Of a DNA stretch of 5,062 nt, positions 1 to 5,062 are shown piece after piece (within the stretch, counting starts at the first letter, position 1; each line of letters begins with the position of its first letter). The position numbers and the translations under genes are program-made. A model generated the notes under the pieces. That model worked only from the letters and a program-made list of their open reading frames with translations. It searched no databases and was not told the origin of the DNA. The DNA comes from a virus. Taxonomy: Duplodnaviria > Heunggongvirae > Uroviricota > Caudoviricetes. The stretch lies in IMG/VR virus record IMGVR_UViG_3300012974_000295. One strand, given 5' to 3'.

Positions 1-123
1 AAAGTGCTTCATAAAATCGTTAAGCGCATTAATTCGCTGATCGAAAGGCATTACAGGTGCTTCACCAGCAATTTTTGTTTTTTCAGCGATTTCACGAAGC
101 TTTTGATAATCAATCTTGCTCAC
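1..123 (-). CDS. Hypothetical phage early protein, partial (start in window, 3' end beyond left edge); positional equivalent of the gene after yfdS in CPS-53-like elements
   Basis: Minus strand has GGAGG (130-134) 6 nt upstream of a GTG at 123-121 that overlaps the stop of the upstream gene (GTGA-type coupling). The frame is open for 41 codons to the window edge (VSKIDYQKLREIAEKTKIAGEAPVMPFDQRINALNDFMKHF...). It is absent from the ORF track because it has no in-window stop. Product unknown. Confidence 0.4.
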   Translation of the reverse strand, partial: MSKIDYQKLREIAEKTKIAGEAPVMPFDQRINALNDFMKHF

Positions 124-470
124 TGGTTGCCTCCTTTGCGAATCTGTTCCGCCCATTCTTCTAGGGATTTCTCCGCATATTCACCAGACAGGCCATCAAT
201 CGGATGCGGTTCATTAGCCAACTCTTCTTTCGCTGACAGAATCATGCGTGTAACGTCGAAAACTTCAGCCAAAGGCTTATTGATAAATCCGTGATTGAAA
301 GCAGCAGCAAGACGGCTTGCGGTATAGTTAATACCCTCGTTGCGAGCCTCAGCACGTACTTCATCGAATTTACGCACCAGATACTCAGCATTTGTTTCAT
401 TCACTTTCAGATCTCGCGGTACACATTTCCCGCGAAGAAACCCTTCCATTTCGAAAACATTCATGCGCAT
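120..470 (-). CDS. Hypothetical early-left operon protein, 116 aa (114 aa if started at M3); positional equivalent of yfdS
   Basis: ORF-track ORF with protein-like composition (charged, helical). GGAG lies 8 nt upstream of the ATG at 470. The alternative start M3 (464-462) forms an ATGA overlap with the stop of the upstream HD gene. The overlapping plus-strand ORF 4-294 is Cys/Phe/Ser-rich and judged spurious. No recognisable domain by eye. Confidence 0.65.
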   Translation of the reverse strand: MRMNVFEMEGFLRGKCVPRDLKVNETNAEYLVRKFDEVRAEARNEGINYTASRLAAAFNHGFINKPLAEVFDVTRMILSAKEELANEPHPIDGLSGEYAEKSLEEWAEQIRKGGNQ

Positions 471-997
471 TTGCGTAACTCCGATAACTCGTTAAAACGT
501 TCCATAAACATCCCATAGGCATGGCCTGGCGACAGTGGAATAACTTTGAACATCTCTGTTGCCGGGATACCTTCCAGAACAGGCCAGAAAGAGCCATCAT
601 CAAGCCCGAGATCACGGCGTTCGGTTGCCAGCATAATGAGATCGGCATATTTCACTGGCGTGCTCATAACAGGAGGTAACCCGTATTTCTCACGGATTAC
701 GGCGTCTATTTTTTCTTCCATCCGTTTATAGTCAGGAAGAAGTCGTTTCAATGGTGCGGGGATGTCCTGGCAATACGCTTCTGTTGCATCATGCATTAAC
801 GCTTCAAAAGCAAATTCCTGCGGCACCAGCTGGCTGCAAAGCACTGCATGCTGGGCGACACTGTAGAAGTGTGAAAGATGTCCTGCAAAGCGACAGATAT
901 TTGAAAGGGAAACCGCGATATCGTTAATCACGATGTCGTCTTTATTTATCTTGTCATAATAAAAATGCTTCCCGGAAAAAGTTTTAATAAATGACAT
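461..997 (-). CDS. yfdR: HD-domain metal-dependent phosphohydrolase, YfdR-like (178 aa)
   Basis: Translation contains the HD-superfamily motifs H...HD...D (SVAQHAVL, ALMHDATEAY, CQDIP). The track ORF begins with GTG at 1024; I prefer the ATG at 997 (MSFIKTF...) because GGAGAA lies 6 nt upstream and the 178-aa length matches my memory of K-12 YfdR. Symbol is from memory and synteny (120/274/178-aa genes in yfdP-Q-R order), not from a search. Confidence 0.7.
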   Translation of the reverse strand: MSFIKTFSGKHFYYDKINKDDIVINDIAVSLSNICRFAGHLSHFYSVAQHAVLCSQLVPQEFAFEALMHDATEAYCQDIPAPLKRLLPDYKRMEEKIDAVIREKYGLPPVMSTPVKYADLIMLATERRDLGLDDGSFWPVLEGIPATEMFKVIPLSPGHAYGMFMERFNELSELRKCA

Positions 998-1090
998 TTT
1001 GTTCTCCACGTATATGCGTTGCACCGTGCTGAATTCTGGTAAAAGGAAGCCCTCACCATCTGGCGATTATTGGGTAAATTATGTTGACAT

Positions 1091-1112
1091 AAATGCCCCC
1101 GCAGGGGCATTT
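1091..1112 (-). other. GC-rich hairpin in the yfdQ-yfdR intergenic region (possible partial terminator or RNA stability/processing element)
   Basis: Perfect 9-bp inverted repeat AAATGCCCC / GGGGCATTT with a 4-nt loop, 13 nt downstream of the yfdQ stop on the minus strand. The flanks are only moderately U-rich on either strand, so a strong terminator is unlikely. Confidence 0.3.
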
Positions 1113-1124
1113 GCAGTAATGAAA

Positions 1125-1949
1125 TCAGGCGGTGAAAGTACCAATAAAGGTTTCTGCTTTGCTGTCTTTGAATTTCTCAACAAGCAGATCACGAAATTCG
1201 TTAGCCATTTCTTCCTGCACCGCTTCCAGCTGAATAATGCGCAGAACCAGTACAGGACGATCGCCAGTGATAATGCTGAGGCGTAATTTAAACGGACGTT
1301 CTTTCAGACCTTCAAACGGAACGCATTTAAATTCAAATGCCACTGGCATAATGTCTTTGGTCTTCGCTTCGACAGACTCCATCAGGGAGCGTTTGCCGCT
1401 GAAGTCATTATCTTCAAAATCAGCGGTCTGGTTCGCTTCAATTGTGATTTTACGGATCGCCGCAGCCGCTTTGGTTGCCTGAATGGCGTCACCATTAGCA
1501 TCAAAGCCCACAAGGTAGTCGGCCCAGTCTTCAATCCATTCTGCCAGTGACTTCTGGGAGTTACGCTCGCCGTTAACAGACAACAGGGCAGAGAACGGTG
1601 CTGTCTTTTTCAGTTTGAGAGTGGCGGTGTTATCTGCGTGACCTGGTTCATCAATAGTACCCAGGTTAAGCACACTGACTGCTCGCATATTATCGGCATC
1701 GATAAAGCAGCGGGTGCCTTCATCTGCAAGATCTTTAGAATAACGGGTAAAGTCATCGATGCTGGCAGTGGAAAGCGCACCACGGAAACGGAAGCGATTT
1801 AAATTAAATTTTTCCAGATCATGAATGCGGAAATTCTCAGGCAATGCCACAGCATCGGCACCAATCTTACTGATAATTTCATTAACACCCTGAGCAGAAA
1901 TAAGGGCATGGATTTGATTAATTGCGGTTGCGTCTAAGTTCTGAGACAT
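1125..1949 (-). CDS. yfdQ: YfdQ-like phage protein (DUF2303 family as I recall), 274 aa
   Basis: ATG at 1949 with GAGGA 6 nt upstream and TGA stop at 1127-1125. Protein-like composition. Length and gene order match my recollection of K-12 CPS-53 YfdQ. No catalytic motif recognised by eye. Confidence 0.7.
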
Positions 1950-2014
1950 AATAAGTCCTCACTATATAAAGATATTCAGTGATGAGATAAATAATCGGTT
2001 AATTAAGAACGATA

Positions 2015-2377
2015 TTAATGACCTGCTGCGCGGAGTTTTCCGTCAGGTTCACCGGCAAGAGTCAGTAATTGTCCCTGGTCTTCCTGCAGAATAGTCAGGC
2101 GACCACCGCGATTGACATACATCGGCGTTTCGGTGGTGTCTTCTTCGGAAATTTTCCCGCGGTTAGTCGGGCGAACATATGAGAGTTTGTGTTTGATTTT
2201 CACACGGTTCTCATCAAATGGTTCGATTTCCAGGTTGAGTGAGACCTTACCTTTGGTTTTCGTGTTCATCACACCTGAAGCGACTTCACTGAGAACTGCG
2301 CCGATTTTGGTTTCAAATACGCCGCCGTCCAGCTCCCCGATAAATGCCTGCACATCAGTACTGCGTTCGCTAGCCAT
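2015..2377 (-). CDS. yfdP: YfdP-like phage protein, 120 aa; first gene of the leftward early operon
   Basis: The track ORF extends to 2563, but the 62-codon N-terminal extension is Cys/His/Arg/Pro-rich and coincides with the leader hairpins. The internal ATG at 2377 (MASERSTDVQ...) has GAGGAG 7 nt upstream and gives 120 aa, matching my recollection of K-12 YfdP. TAA stop at 2017-2015. Confidence 0.65.
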   Translation of the reverse strand: MASERSTDVQAFIGELDGGVFETKIGAVLSEVASGVMNTKTKGKVSLNLEIEPFDENRVKIKHKLSYVRPTNRGKISEEDTTETPMYVNRGGRLTILQEDQGQLLTLAGEPDGKLRAAGH

Positions 2378-2425
2378 TTTGCTGCTCCTCATCATATCGA
2401 CCCTGCAAGGTCGGTTGGTTTCTCC

Positions 2426-2514
2426 ACAAAACAGAGAAGAACACCTGCGGTGGCAGCCGCCCGGATGGATTGGGTTATGAGCCCGTCGTCCGGTGATGCT
2501 CTTCTCTGTTTTGT
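2426..2514 (-). repeat. Long inverted repeat (15 bp perfect, 16/17 extended) enclosing a 55-nt GC-rich core; predicted compound RNA hairpin in the yfdP 5' leader
   Basis: 2426-2442 ACAAAACAGAGAAGAAC is the reverse complement of 2498-2514 GCTCTTCTCTGTTTTGT with one mismatch. The core contains nested small inverted repeats (GCGG/CCGC 2447-2460, GGG/CCC 2472-2484, CCGG/CCGG 2461-2493). The element ends 49 nt upstream of the yfdP ATG. Confidence 0.5.
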
Positions 2515-2560
2515 AAAAAGAGCGGTACCAGCCGGAAGCAAGTGTACAAACTGGTACCGC
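2515..2560 (-). terminator. Candidate intrinsic terminator within the early-left leader (minus strand)
   Basis: Perfect 10-bp stem GCGGTACCAG / CTGGTACCGC (2522-2531 and 2551-2560, 7/10 GC) followed on the minus strand by UCUUUUU (2521-2515). The 19-nt loop is larger than typical. There is no U-tract on the plus strand, so any activity is minus-strand specific. Confidence 0.4.
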
Positions 2561-2985
2561 CAAAGCAGTGGCTGTTGTGGTGACCGGTGCTGATCTCCGG
2601 CTTGCGGTTATTTCAGACTCTCACGGGTGTTTAATTGCCCCGCCGAACAGCTCTTTTCCGCAATAGCTGCAATGTCTTTCGCGCATCAGCCTGCGCATTC
2701 ACCACAACGTTGAGAGCACTTAGCCAGTTACGGCACCACACTTTGTCGCGGTTCCATAAATGCCCTCATCGTTGCACCCTGGTCTCTTCCCAGGTGTCAA
2801 ACCGAACCGCCACGCTGGTTAGGCGTCTTATCAGCATCATCATTGACTTGCACATTCCGGCTACCTGGTTTGTTTGCCCGAGCAAGGAGTGGATTGTCCC
2901 CTTTAACGTCCCCAGACCGCTAACGACGCATGTGCCATACGCCGTGTTACAACCAAATTTTGTTAGTACCTTGTTTGTTGGTCTG
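2561..2985 (-). ncRNA. Candidate structured noncoding leader or ncRNA transcribed from the pL-like promoter (no N-like ORF present)
   Basis: Every minus-strand frame is broken by stops every 10-60 codons. The only long ORFs (2635-3003 plus, 2766-3044 minus) are Arg/Cys/His/Thr-rich and not protein-like. By hand count the region is about 55% GC against roughly 30-40% for the adjacent repressor gene. Several local inverted repeats are present (e.g. GGTCTGG 2980-2986 with CCAGACC 2912-2918). Boundaries are approximate. Confidence 0.3.
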
Positions 2986-2991
2986 GAAAGA

Positions 2992-3020
2992 AAGATAAAA
3001 TGAAGTTGCGCATTATGCAA
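2992..3020 (-). promoter_or_regulatory. pL-like early-left promoter (candidate)
   Basis: On the minus strand, TTGCAT (3020-3015, inside an operator site) is followed by a 17-nt spacer and TATCTT (2997-2992). Predicted start is near 2985, reading toward yfdP. Confidence 0.4.
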
Positions 3021-3044
3021 GTGTTTTTGTTGCGAGATATGCAA
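3006..3044. promoter_or_regulatory. OL-like operator pair: two 15-bp imperfect palindromes
   Basis: TTGCGCATTATGCAA (3006-3020) and TTGCGAGATATGCAA (3030-3044) have centres 24 bp apart. They share the TTGCG...GCAA pattern with the sites between the cI-like and cro-like genes. Confidence 0.5.
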
Positions 3045-3050
3045 TTTGAT

Positions 3051-3079
3051 GGGTAATGAAAAGCCACCTTCGGGTGGCT
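3051..3079 (-). terminator. Intrinsic terminator downstream of the repressor gene (minus strand)
   Basis: 7-bp stem AGCCACC / GGTGGCT (3062-3068 and 3073-3079) with a 4-nt loop, followed on the minus strand by UUUUCAUU. It lies about 20 nt beyond the repressor stop codon. The plus-strand tail is not U-rich. Confidence 0.55.
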
Positions 3080-3099: not shown

Positions 3100-3792
3100 T
3101 TAATTGTGTCGCTTAAGGGTTTGTGACTGGCTGATTAAGACCTTTCCAAAGACCATAAACCGGTGTTCATTTTCGCTGGTAATTCCCCATTCACGGTAAA
3201 TCTGGTTATCAGAAATCACCAGTAGTTTGTCAGGTATCATTTGCAGTCGTTTGACATAAATTTTATCATCAAAACCAAATACATAGATACCATCTCCATC
3301 AAACTGATTGATACTGACATCAACGAAGATGAGATCTCCTGGCTCAATGGTTGGACACATACTGTCCCCACGAACGTTGATTACTTTAATGTGATTTGCT
3401 GGCCGTCCGCCAAACATCGATACAGCATTATCAGTTCTGTATTCAATGGCATGAATCACATCAATGACATCACCGCCCTGGATAAGGCCATTTCCCGCAC
3501 TGGCACTGATATCCAGCATTTCAATACGGAATACATCCTTCACCTGCGCAACATCCTCACTAATACTGTTTTTACATACAGTATTACTTTTGAAGTCTGA
3601 GGTAAAGAGATCAGCAATATCAACACCTAAGCTCCTGGCAATATTACTCAGGGCTTGTTCAGTGAATTGTTTCTGCTTACCTGTTTCCAGGCGCGAGATA
3701 TTTGCCGCATCCACTCCTATTGCTTCAGCGAGATCGGCGATTTTCATGTTCTTCGCTTGGCGAAGTTGTCTGACTCGATTTCCTATGTTCAT
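3100..3792 (-). CDS. cI-like prophage repressor: N-terminal XRE-type HTH plus C-terminal LexA-like S24 peptidase autocleavage domain (230 aa)
   Basis: N-terminus RVRQLRQAKNMKIADLAEAIGVDAANISRLETGK is a classic HTH. The C-terminal domain has the Ser-Lys dyad context (VRGDSMCPTIEPGDLIFVD and YVKRL) and a candidate Ala-Gly cleavage site (SASAGNG). It is divergent from the cro-like gene. There is no SD upstream of the ATG at 3792. Confidence 0.85.
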   Translation of the reverse strand: MNIGNRVRQLRQAKNMKIADLAEAIGVDAANISRLETGKQKQFTEQALSNIARSLGVDIADLFTSDFKSNTVCKNSISEDVAQVKDVFRIEMLDISASAGNGLIQGGDVIDVIHAIEYRTDNAVSMFGGRPANHIKVINVRGDSMCPTIEPGDLIFVDVSINQFDGDGIYVFGFDDKIYVKRLQMIPDKLLVISDNQIYREWGITSENEHRFMVFGKVLISQSQTLKRHN

Positions 3793-3798
3793 GCGTTT

Positions 3799-3827
3799 AT
3801 TACATTTCTTTATTGCGCGTTAAGCAA
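3799..3827 (-). promoter_or_regulatory. PRM-like promoter for the repressor gene, predicted to give a leaderless mRNA
   Basis: On the minus strand, TTGCTT (3827-3822) is followed by a 17-nt spacer and TGTAAT (3804-3799). The -10 ends 6 nt before the ATG at 3792, so the predicted start is at or next to the A of the ATG, as for lambda cI from PRM. The -35 overlaps operator site 3813-3827. Confidence 0.35.
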
Positions 3828-3875
3828 ATCAACTTGCGCAAAATATTTGCGTGAAATAATATGCTCATCACGCAA
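3813..3875. promoter_or_regulatory. OR-like tripartite operator: three sites with centres 24 bp apart
   Basis: Sites are TTGCGCGTTAAGCAA (3813-3827), the palindrome CGCAAA-ATA-TTTGCG (3837-3851, overlapping TTGCGCAA at 3834-3841) and ATGCTCATCACGCAA (3861-3875, reverse complement TTGCGTGATGAGCAT). Centres fall at 3820, 3844 and 3868. The half-sites TTGCG/CGCAA are shared with the OL pair. The middle site has inverted half-site polarity and is the least certain. Confidence 0.5.
3834..3862 (+). promoter_or_regulatory. PR-like promoter for the cro-like gene
   Basis: TTGCGC (3834-3839), a 17-nt spacer and TAATAT (3857-3862) predict a start near 3869. GGAGG (3881-3885) lies 4 nt before the ATG at 3890. 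The -10 and start overlap operator site 3861-3875. Confidence 0.45.
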
Positions 3876-4150: not shown

Positions 4151-4694
4151 GCATCACTGGAAAGTGGAAAAACAGCCTGAGTGGTACGTGAAAGCTGTCA
4201 GAAAAACTATCGCGGCGTTGCCGGGGGGTTACGCTGAAGCTGCTGAGTGGCTGGATGTAACAGAGAACGCTTTATTCAACCGCCTTCGTGCAGATGGCGA
4301 TCAGATTTTCCCGCTGGGATGGGCAATGATTTTACAGCGCGCTGCTGGCACTCACTACATTGCGGATGCTGTCGCACAGTCTGCTGGTGGGGTGTTTGTA
4401 TCGCTTCCTGAAATTGAGGAAGTAGAGAACGCCGATATAAACCAGCGCCTGCTGGAAGTCATCGAACAAATCGGGAGTTACTCAAAGCAGATTCGTTCGG
4501 CAATCGAAGATGGGGTAGTGGAGCCACACGAGCAGACAGCAATTAATGATGAGTTGTATCTGTCAATTTCGAAGCTCCAGGAGCATGCGGCACTGGTCTA
4601 CAAAATTTTCTGCGCTCCAGAAAAGAGTGACGCCCGCGAGTGTGCAGCTCCGGGCGTCGTGGCGTTTTGTGTCTGTGGAGAAACTAACGCATGA
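4143..4694 (+). CDS. cII-position regulatory protein (183 aa); possibly a CII-like/CP76- or YdaT-like regulator
   Basis: GTG start at 4143 with AGGAG (4131-4135) 7 nt upstream, translationally coupled to the cro-like gene. Protein-like composition with a possible HTH around AEWLDVTENALFNRLRADG. Function is inferred mainly from gene position; family assignment is unverified. Confidence 0.55.
   Translation: MGKHHWKVEKQPEWYVKAVRKTIAALPGGYAEAAEWLDVTENALFNRLRADGDQIFPLGWAMILQRAAGTHYIADAVAQSAGGVFVSLPEIEEVENADINQRLLEVIEQIGSYSKQIRSAIEDGVVEPHEQTAINDELYLSISKLQEHAALVYKIFCAPEKSDARECAAPGVVAFCVCGETNA
4619..4658 (-). terminator. Candidate minus-strand intrinsic terminator inside the 3' end of the cII-position gene (oop-like antisense RNA terminator)
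   Basis: Perfect 8-bp GC-rich stem GACGCCCG / CGGGCGTC (4629-4636 and 4651-4658), with an extra GAG/CTC pairing inside the loop. On the minus strand it is followed by ACUCUUUUCU (4628-4619). On the plus strand a U-run starts only 6 nt after the stem. Confidence 0.35.
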
Positions 4695-5062
4695 ACAGTT
4701 TAACGGCAAATAACCGTTTGTCGCAACAGCTGGTGGTCAGCGTCTCTGAACACCTGTTGTTACGGCATGAATGCAGATTACCAAATCACCAGGCTGTAAG
4801 TAACCACAGAGAACTTTACCTGACTGTGGGGGGCGAGTTGTGCAGGAACTTAACCGCTGGTTTCGTGACGGAAGAGGGCTTTATGTTCATGTTATTCGTT
4901 GGGAACCAGAAACACAGCGCGTTATCTATCTTCGCAAAGACTACCCGCATGAGTGCTTTAGTCCTTTGTGGAAATTCAGGCGTGATTTTGTTGAGTGTGA
5001 CGGACCACCAACACATTGATTCTGCCATTCCGGGACGTTACACTGTTCAGGCACCTTATAAA
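4691..5062 (+). CDS. Hypothetical protein, partial (5' end in window, runs off the right edge); position suggests first replication-region gene
   Basis: The ATG at 4691 overlaps the TGA of the upstream gene (ATGA) and GGAG lies 10 nt upstream. The frame is open for 124 codons to the window edge. An alternative small ORF in another plus frame (GTG 4840 to TGA 5019, 60 aa) also looks protein-like, so the frame is unresolved. Confidence 0.35.
   Translation, partial: MNSLTANNRLSQQLVVSVSEHLLLRHECRLPNHQAVSNHRELYLTVGGELCRNLTAGFVTEEGFMFMLFVGNQKHSALSIFAKTTRMSALVLCGNSGVILLSVTDHQHIDSAIPGRYTVQAPYK

Follow-up and report, generated by a model that had tools for sequence, protein, structure and literature searches.

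The yfdP-yfdQ-yfdR genes in the early-left operon of a lambdoid prophage: identities, structured leader and candidate functions

Introduction

The closest described counterpart of the genes considered here is the yfdP-yfdQ-yfdR-yfdS-yfdT cluster of prophage CPS-53 (KplE1) of Escherichia coli K-12, where yfdQRST came to light because it suppresses hda-185 at multicopy (Noguchi and Katayama 2016, PMC4776307). In that system, inhibition of initiation at oriC requires yfdQ and yfdR together with one of yfdS and yfdT, but not yfdP; YfdR binds domain I of DnaA in Phe46-dependent pull-downs and is a moderate competitor of DiaA and DnaB, and extracts rich in YfdQRST block oriC replication in vitro (PMC4776307). 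The characterized activity of YfdR is on deoxynucleoside monophosphates (dNMPs), and its reported substrate affinity is low (PMC4776307). The current study concerns the yfdP-, yfdQ- and yfdR-like genes at positions 120-2377 of a 5,062-nucleotide (nt) stretch of DNA, referred to here as the window, from a virus of the Caudoviricetes (IMG/VR record IMGVR_UViG_3300012974_000295). A preliminary description of the window stated both the inhibition of initiation in K-12 and the binding of DnaA by YfdR accurately, and proposed that these genes stand in the place of the usual recombination genes and form a candidate host-takeover module.

Lambda P and Bacillus subtilis SirA are functional analogues of YfdR, in that each contacts the initiator protein of its host and lowers initiation at oriC. 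The Phe46/Phe49 surface of DnaA domain I is used by SirA as well as by YfdR (PMC4776307), whereas lambda P binds domain III and is itself a helicase loader, a component absent from the phage type to which the window belongs; neither analogue is related to YfdR in sequence or fold.

A second point of comparison is provided by lambdoid phages that lack a recombination (Rec) module, which account for 68 (22%) of the Enterobacteriales lambdoid phages in one survey and are mostly rich in Chi sites (Zheng, Casjens, Davidson, Amundsen and Smith 2025, PMC12315714). RecBCD aids the growth of the type phage, LLS, which replicates with an O-only module and lacks an N gene; its CI and Cro proteins are closest to those of phage mEp460_4F5, and its early-left operon opens with 'yfbR, yfdQ and yfdP' homologues (PMC12315714). 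The same study described the cluster as 'fairly common' and as neither confined to nor universal in Rec-less phages, argued that its genes are unlikely to be hidden recombination genes because it coexists with complete Rec modules, and suggested a mechanism like that of the put RNA for the Rec-less class (PMC12315714).

Gene content of the early-left operon

The window corresponds to the immunity region of a lambdoid prophage, and positions 120-2377 are best explained as the promoter-proximal genes of an early-left operon repressed by CI in a prophage of the mEp460 / SfV / CPS-53 type (Table 1). The best explanation for the phage type as a whole is that it would have no recombination module, only an O-type replication protein and no N gene. 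It is on balance probable that the genes examined here form an accessory early module in which YfdR, a dNMP phosphatase, binds DnaA and damps host initiation together with YfdQ and a partner, in a phage that uses RecBCD and Chi sites.

The first three genes are those that the preliminary description had named: YfdP, YfdQ and YfdR are 99.2%, 99.3% and 98.3% identical, respectively, to the CPS-53 proteins, the genes stand in the same order, and the DNA is 97.3% identical to that of K-12 over window positions 364-2396. The at least two further small proteins that it listed are also present, as a YfdS-like chimera of 116 amino acids and the start of an Ea22-like gene. As in the LLS type, the early-left operon starts with a cluster of yfdP, yfdQ and an HD-nucleotidase gene, and the order yfdP-yfdQ-yfdR after cI recurs in mEp460 and SfV, both of them viable phages, as well as in Shiga toxin (Stx) phages and in Citrobacter phage phiNP. 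The E. coli chromosomal prophages related to the window match it at 97% identity over its full length, while Stx2a-converting phages, mEp460 (97.6%), phiSTEC1575-Stx2k and the PhiR phages do so at 97-99% identity over 91-97% of it. At a nucleotide identity of 90% or more, the yfdP-yfdQ-yfdR block was found in 3,012 of 5,426 complete E. coli genomes, and RefSeq already annotates the cluster by name. Given this abundance, and the publications of 2016 and 2025, the finding amounts to the correct reading of a common and known module.

Compared to K-12, the window retains the regulatory context of the cluster. CPS-53 lacks the leader, the operators, cI and cro, and its yfdP adjoins the remnant gene yfdO; as homology to K-12 DNA ends at window position 2396, it is K-12 that lost the leader and the immunity genes. 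Downstream, an unrelated domain replaces the DUF551 C-terminal part of YfdS, and the Ea22-like gene takes the place of yfdT. Residues 1-42 of the 116-amino-acid protein are 88% identical to K-12 YfdS, and its C-terminal ~80 residues, unrelated to YfdS or DUF551, match the C-termini of PHROG 614, 14548 and 368, families whose function is unknown. This protein had no Pfam match, and its candidacy as an Ea22 relative was rejected for lack of similarity. The segment is a mosaic of three parts, namely the yfdP-yfdQ cassette, yfdR, and small variable downstream genes.

Table 1. Features annotated in the 5,062-nt window and the evidence for each
Feature	Position	Strand	Evidence
5' end of ead/Ea22-like gene	1..123	minus	RefSeq annotation of a 97%-identical relative covering the whole window; frame translation
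Open reading frame of 116 amino acids, YfdS-like chimera	120..470	minus	Open reading frame list; comparison with K-12 and PHROG
yfdR, HD-domain 5'-deoxynucleotidase of YfbR type, 178 amino acids	461..997	minus	K-12 identity; PHROG; PDB 2gz4
yfdQ, DUF2303 protein, 274 amino acids	1125..1949	minus	Pfam; PHROG
yfdP, 120 amino acids	2015..2377	minus	K-12 identity; homologue alignment
Near-perfect RNA hairpin, 99 nt	2421..2519	minus	Inverted repeat; RNA fold
Terminator-like hairpin, 13-base-pair stem, followed by CUCUUUUUAC	2514..2561	minus	Inverted repeat; RNA fold
tRNA-like structured RNA	2574..2708	minus	Covariation across copies
Conserved non-coding element, ~245 nt	2702..2945	minus	~80% identity with phiV10-type and P1-like phages
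Two 15-base-pair operators, putative left operators	3006-3020, 3030-3044		Repeat analysis
Intrinsic terminator after cI	3062..3079	minus	Consensus scan; RNA fold
CI-type repressor, helix-turn-helix and S24 peptidase	3100..3792	minus	Pfam domains
Right operator region, TTGC-N7-GCAA operators at 3813-3827 and 3861-3875	3813..3875		Repeats between cI and cro-like gene

The 116-amino-acid frame shares the 10 nt at its start with the end of yfdR, and its stop codon is overlapped by the ATG of the ead/Ea22-like gene, which continues beyond the edge of the window. The start of yfdP was placed at 2377 by alignment of homologues; the mechanical open reading frame extends to 2563 from an upstream TTG. 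Between cI with its terminator and yfdP lie ~620 nt with no credible gene. The plus strand carries a cro-like gene, a CII/YmfL-like gene and a DUF4222 gene.

YfdR and its proposed effect on host replication

YfdR is identical to the YfdR of phage mEp460_4F5 and matches PHROG 318 (E = 4e-110) as well as PDB 2gz4, the Agrobacterium protein Atu1052 (E = 2e-13). The metal-binding residues of the HD domain were observed to be intact: H50, H69-D70, E73, D78 and D119 align with the metal-binding and catalytic residues of YfbR and PDB 2gz4, so that the H...HD...D ligands, the catalytic Glu and the substrate Asp all correspond, and the same residues are kept in homologues of 66-71% identity. An R-F pair occupies the position of R18-W19 in YfbR. 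Overall identity to YfbR is only ~19%, and the score of YfdR for the Pfam YfbR-like family, 24.2 bits, falls just short of the 25.9 demanded, while that for the NCBIfam YfbR equivalog is 19.9 against 122; in addition, its reported affinity is much lower, and binding to DnaA is known only for YfdR. PHROG, NCBI and EcoCyc-type annotation all describe YfdR as a 5'-deoxynucleotidase. The YfdR of the window is probably both a dNMP phosphatase and a binder of DnaA domain I, activities known from the literature on the K-12 orthologue.

By itself, a YfdR-type HD protein occurs in 333 phage records, including those of jumbo and virulent phages, and the hosts of these phages include Bacillus, Caulobacter and Rhizobium. 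A distribution over this many records and such far-apart hosts argues that enzymatic activity, rather than DnaA binding, would be the conserved property of the protein.

These observations are consistent with a sequence of events in which loss of the repressor would release leftward transcripts that cross a structured leader with a terminator-like hairpin, after which the proteins would be made. YfdR would then dephosphorylate dNMPs and would also bind domain I of DnaA at Phe46, where DiaA and DnaB make contact, and YfdR, YfdQ and a small partner would together lower initiation at oriC. Overall, the genes would serve as an early accessory by which replication resources and nucleotide pools are shifted to the phage. 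Nucleotidase activity, DnaA binding and the inhibition of initiation at multicopy were demonstrated by others on proteins 98-99% identical to those of the window, of whose inhibitory set both yfdQ and yfdR are present; action at natural expression levels during induction and a benefit to the phage are what we infer from them.

Several points weigh against this reading. The inhibition was seen at multicopy, and removal of yfdQRST left replication without a phenotype; by the authors' own account, overexpression could have produced the effect as an artefact, and they suggest an ancestral role in phage growth (PMC4776307). In the window, the YfdS or YfdT that inhibition requires in K-12 is represented only by YfdS residues 1-42, with no match to YfdT. 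The terminator-like hairpin lies between the operators and yfdP, which means that immediate deployment after induction, as suggested in the preliminary description, is not assured. Furthermore, YfdP and YfdQ occur without YfdR in Vibrio phages, Pseudomonas phage PG1, the Xanthomonas phage and Stx phage P13374, and must therefore have a role that is not explicable via DnaA; the pair clearly has a YfdR-independent role of its own. The proposal of a host-takeover module is accordingly retained in part: the gene identities, the HD motif and the position in the operon speak for it, whereas the small partner is incomplete and the known effect is a multicopy one.

The yfdP-yfdQ pair

YfdQ is a full-length match to DUF2303 (PF10065, residues 7-272, E = 5e-92) and to PHROG 210 (E = 1e-119), and precomputed database annotation places Pfam PF27127 on the listed homologues of YfdP. 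In profile searches, all 11 loci examined had yfdP directly upstream of yfdQ; they come from seven lineages, comprising E. coli lambdoids, Citrobacter phiNP, Stx phage P13374, Pseudomonas phages PG1 and LPPA56, two kinds of Vibrio phage and the Xylella/Xanthomonas phage Usme. YfdR stands beside the pair only in enterobacterial lambdoids and, one gene removed, in LPPA56. On the preferred explanation, yfdP-yfdQ is an old and strictly paired phage cassette. The usual neighbours of the pair elsewhere are genes for single-stranded DNA-binding proteins (SSB), DnaQ- or YqaJ-type exonucleases and annealases, as seen in Vibrio phage 24E30.2, Xylella phage Usme, P13374, VvAW1 and JC1. The yfdP of P13374 (5558-5934 of the locus) is split into two overlapping open reading frames annotated as small hypothetical proteins, which points either to a pseudogene produced by a frameshift or to a feature of sequencing or of recoding.

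The AlphaFold2 (AF2) models of YfdP and YfdQ, structure prediction being one of the checks suggested in the preliminary description, have no recognizable fold relatives. The YfdP model consists of a helix and a three-stranded sheet of three long strands, for which a fold search gave no informative match. The tail of YfdP, TPMYVNRGG(R/K)LTILQEDQGQL, is highly conserved and of low confidence in the model, as would be expected of a peptide that binds a partner. In YfdQ, the charged and aromatic residues H104, E140-D141-W142 and R166 are near-invariant. The YfdQ family contains ~1,800 clusters at 50% identity; domain fusions were considered as a clue to the function of DUF2303 and rejected, since the 150 best-scoring representatives are all at most 302 amino acids long and therefore carry no added domains. 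PDB entry 9o7m, named 'YfdQ Protein', comprises 36 chains of a single sequence, which shares 98.8% identity with a Xanthomonas phage MET23-P3 protein; the number of chains suggests a large assembly, with the entry known by its molecule name. No paper citing the code 9o7m was found, the entry is not mentioned in the PhiXacm4-11 cryo-electron microscopy preprint, and in the related Xylella phage Usme the genes on either side of yfdQ are both without a PDB entry. The DUF2303 protein of podovirus JC1 has been detected in virions.

The inhibition of replication (2016) and the carriage of the cluster by Rec-less lambdoids (2025) are both already known; what the current study adds is that the YfdP-YfdQ pairing is fixed in distant phages, that the two proteins have no recognizable fold relatives and that genes for SSB, exonucleases or annealases are their usual neighbours. 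A bolder, and unlikely, reading of these features is that YfdP-YfdQ is a self-contained and ancient two-gene cassette rather than an accessory of YfdR, with novel folds and a large oligomer acting in an undescribed step of DNA transactions, such as protecting the ends or forks of phage DNA or passing them to host enzymes. Under the same reading, transcripts to yfdP-yfdQ would cross the tRNA-like RNA and the terminator in some E. coli prophages.

Recombination genes and Chi sites

The preliminary description had noted that exo/bet/gam- and erf-type genes are absent, and none was found in the window or annotated in the complete early-left operons of relatives. No Red, Erf or RecT-type domain was detected in the window by Pfam, and its four proteins have no homology to annealase, exonuclease, Gam or Abc2 proteins. 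Similarly, the operons from cI to int of Stx2a_WGPS2, mEp460 and phiSTEC1575 contain no annotated annealase, exonuclease, SSB or RecBCD-inhibitor module, with the exception of a lone DnaQ-type exonuclease beside xis. Chi (GCTGGTGG) is enriched in mEp460, which has 20 sites (16 and 4 by strand) compared to ~1 per strand expected from base composition, and the window contains two Chi octamers on the same (plus) strand, at 4383-4390 and 4729-4736. Because the window covers only 5 kb, genome-wide Chi density and replication genes were inferred from the 97%-identical relatives, whose replication region encodes an O-type 'replication protein' only, both a helicase and a helicase loader being absent. 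It is tempting to relate the loading of DnaB without a loader in these relatives to the position of YfdR on the DnaB-contact surface of DnaA.

The wording that the genes stand instead of recombination genes, as an unusual replacement, did not hold: Rec-less phages make up 22% of lambdoids, and the cluster also occurs with a full Rec module (PMC12315714), as in Stx phage P13374, where kil-gam-recT-exo-ssb lies directly upstream of yfdP-yfdQ. On the preferred explanation, the module is no substitute for recombination genes, and phages of this type would depend on the RecBCD of the host together with numerous Chi sites.

Alternative explanations

There are several potential alternatives to an early module that damps host initiation. 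One that falls short of probable but deserves serious weight is that YfdR is chiefly a nucleotide-pool enzyme, which clears dNMPs early and reshapes precursor pools, its binding to DnaA being incidental. Phage T5 has a pre-early deoxynucleoside-5'-monophosphatase with a dNMP-removing role, and the idea draws further strength from the family-wide conservation of the catalytic residues, from the 333 phage records that include jumbo and virulent phages of unrelated hosts, and from the 5'-deoxynucleotidase label shared by all three annotation sources; the low reported substrate affinity argues the other way, as does the fact that a temperate phage sparing host DNA has no obvious need for dNMP disposal. 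A nucleotide-pool role would be compatible with the damping of host initiation rather than exclusive of it. The anti-defence role that the preliminary description offered as a second hypothesis, in which the HD enzyme would degrade nucleotide second messengers of host immunity, gained no support and is very improbable. It appeals to general facts, namely that some HD enzymes hydrolyse signalling nucleotides and that these are early genes. YfdR, by comparison, is probably a YfbR-type dNMP phosphatase, whose only family matches in Pfam, PHROG and NCBIfam are YfbR-like and HD_3 dNMP phosphohydrolases, its characterized activity is on dNMPs, and the cluster is kept within prophages in more than half of E. 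coli genomes; a PADLOC scan of the four proteins, with a library of defence rather than anti-defence proteins, gave no match.

It is also conceivable, if somewhat doubtful, that phage DNA is itself the target of YfdP and YfdQ, which might, for instance, form an oligomeric accessory that binds DNA ends or single-stranded DNA in replication, repair or recombination, with host inhibition as a by-product of overexpression. The fixed pairing in 11 of 11 loci and seven lineages, the frequent SSB, DnaQ- or YqaJ-type exonuclease and annealase neighbours, the large assembly suggested by the 36 chains of PDB 9o7m and the near-invariant residues H104, E140-D141-W142 and R166 of YfdQ all point in this direction. 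However, the AF2 models of the two proteins have no recognizable nucleic-acid-binding or nuclease fold, PDB 9o7m is readable by its molecule name only, and the presence of the JC1 homologue in virions suggests a different role; moreover, Zheng et al. (PMC12315714) consider a hidden recombination role unlikely on the grounds that the cluster coexists with Rec modules. The accessory early module, with YfdR acting on DnaA and dNMPs, remains the preferred explanation for the operon as a whole.

Operators and leader hairpins

The preliminary description placed the cluster under a repressor-controlled early promoter. The two operators TTGCGCATTATGCAA and TTGCGAGATATGCAA are TTGC-N7-GCAA palindromes 24 base pairs apart just downstream of cI; they match the site at 3813-3827 in the right operator region, and a fourth copy, at 3861-3875, agrees apart from a single mismatch. 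From these matching repeats it is a sound inference that a repressor-controlled leftward promoter would lie just past the cI terminator. This part of the proposal agrees with the operators, and the promoter itself is putative: a consensus promoter scan at the left operators found no strong -35/-10 pair, and the hexamers of a weak candidate on the minus strand, TTGCAT-17-TATCTT, were read by eye.

Two hairpins precede yfdP. The terminator-like hairpin (-21.2 kcal/mol, z = -3.3) ends in a run of U residues, and the 99-nt hairpin (-51.2 kcal/mol, z = -7.5) ends at the ribosome-binding site of yfdP; together they suggest that expression of yfdPQR needs read-through or processing. Upstream of yfdP in 79 E. 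coli viral contigs, obtained from a viral-contig search with a YfdQ alignment and representing near-identical E. coli loci only, the terminator-like hairpin was present in 76, the tRNA-like RNA in 24 and the operator of the window in 17. It follows from these counts that the terminator region travels with yfdP, that the RNA is an optional insert and that the immunity region is freely swapped.

The idea that the rightward operon carries a counterpart of the leader resembling putR was rejected, as the only similarity found was a 15-nt near-repeat (14 of 15 positions matching) between TGTGGAGAAACCAAC (2414-2428, minus) and TGTGGAGAAACTAAC (4674-4688, plus). Each copy is oriented along its own operon, the first immediately upstream of yfdP and the second where the cII-like gene ends; with an estimated ~0.03 chance matches expected, the repeat might be a mosaic-junction sequence.

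A tRNA-like RNA in the leader

The structured RNA of the leader has a 7-base-pair closing stem followed by AAU and a 5-base-pair hairpin with the loop GGCUGA; its 3' part consists of a variable insert and a second 5-base-pair hairpin with the loop AGAUCAGCA, which abuts the 3' strand of the closing stem as the T arm of a tRNA abuts the acceptor stem. UCAGC in the second loop is complementary to GCUGA of the first, with one side of this match fixed by the search pattern. A single pattern scan of viral contigs yielded at least 120 loci, and at least 118 copies were recovered in this way; copies were anchored on the first hairpin and the second loop only, and the closing stem was not used for selection. 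Among the matches listed, whole elements span 82-218 nt; 68 of the 70 unique copies pair at seven or more of nine tested positions of the closing stem, which occurs in 38 different sequences; 94.9% of cells in the whole structure of those 70 copies are paired, compared to 81.4% in shuffles and 28-45% in slid controls; both sides have changed in 15 of 24 pairs; and a same-strand tRNA lies within 600 nt of 12 of 100 copies, with none on the opposite strand. None of 500 shuffles reached the observed pairing.

ARAGORN called no tRNA at this position, and the whole window had no Rfam match at E <= 1 and only chance-level matches at E <= 10. In phiV10, a genuine tRNA-Arg occupies the position of the tRNA-like RNA, after the same upstream element; the counterparts of that element span 2501-2745 and 2501-2685 in two compared loci. 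From the arrangement of these sequences, the upstream element together with a tRNA or tRNA-like gene looks like a mobile cassette. The tRNA-like RNA is, on comparative grounds, a well-supported structured RNA family that is unplaced in Rfam. Several roles are conceivable for it: it could mark a site of processing by RNase P, represent a moron in the form of a stable small RNA gene that brings its own terminator, or act on read-through. One copy in an IMG/VR contig carries a canonical hammerhead-ribozyme core in its variable insert, with CUGAUGA, the stem GGCC-AUAA-GGCC and GAAAC.

The arrangement resembles that of HK022, an N-less lambdoid phage whose structured put RNA is positioned between the early-left promoter and the terminators downstream, as here. 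Unlike put, however, the element of the window has a tRNA-like fold with a variable insert, also occurs beside tRNA genes in unrelated phages and stands upstream of yfdP in less than a third of the related E. coli loci (24 of 79). Identification of the leader as HK022 put RNA was rejected after blastn and motif searches against the whole HK022 genome returned nothing meaningful.

Significance

Two items are worth carrying forward from this study, namely the function of YfdP-YfdQ and the tRNA-like leader RNA, the latter of which may merit a study of its own. Unlike the decayed copy in K-12, the copy of the cluster found here is intact and inducible, and it is the right material for examining the link between the YfdR enzyme and DnaA during induction.

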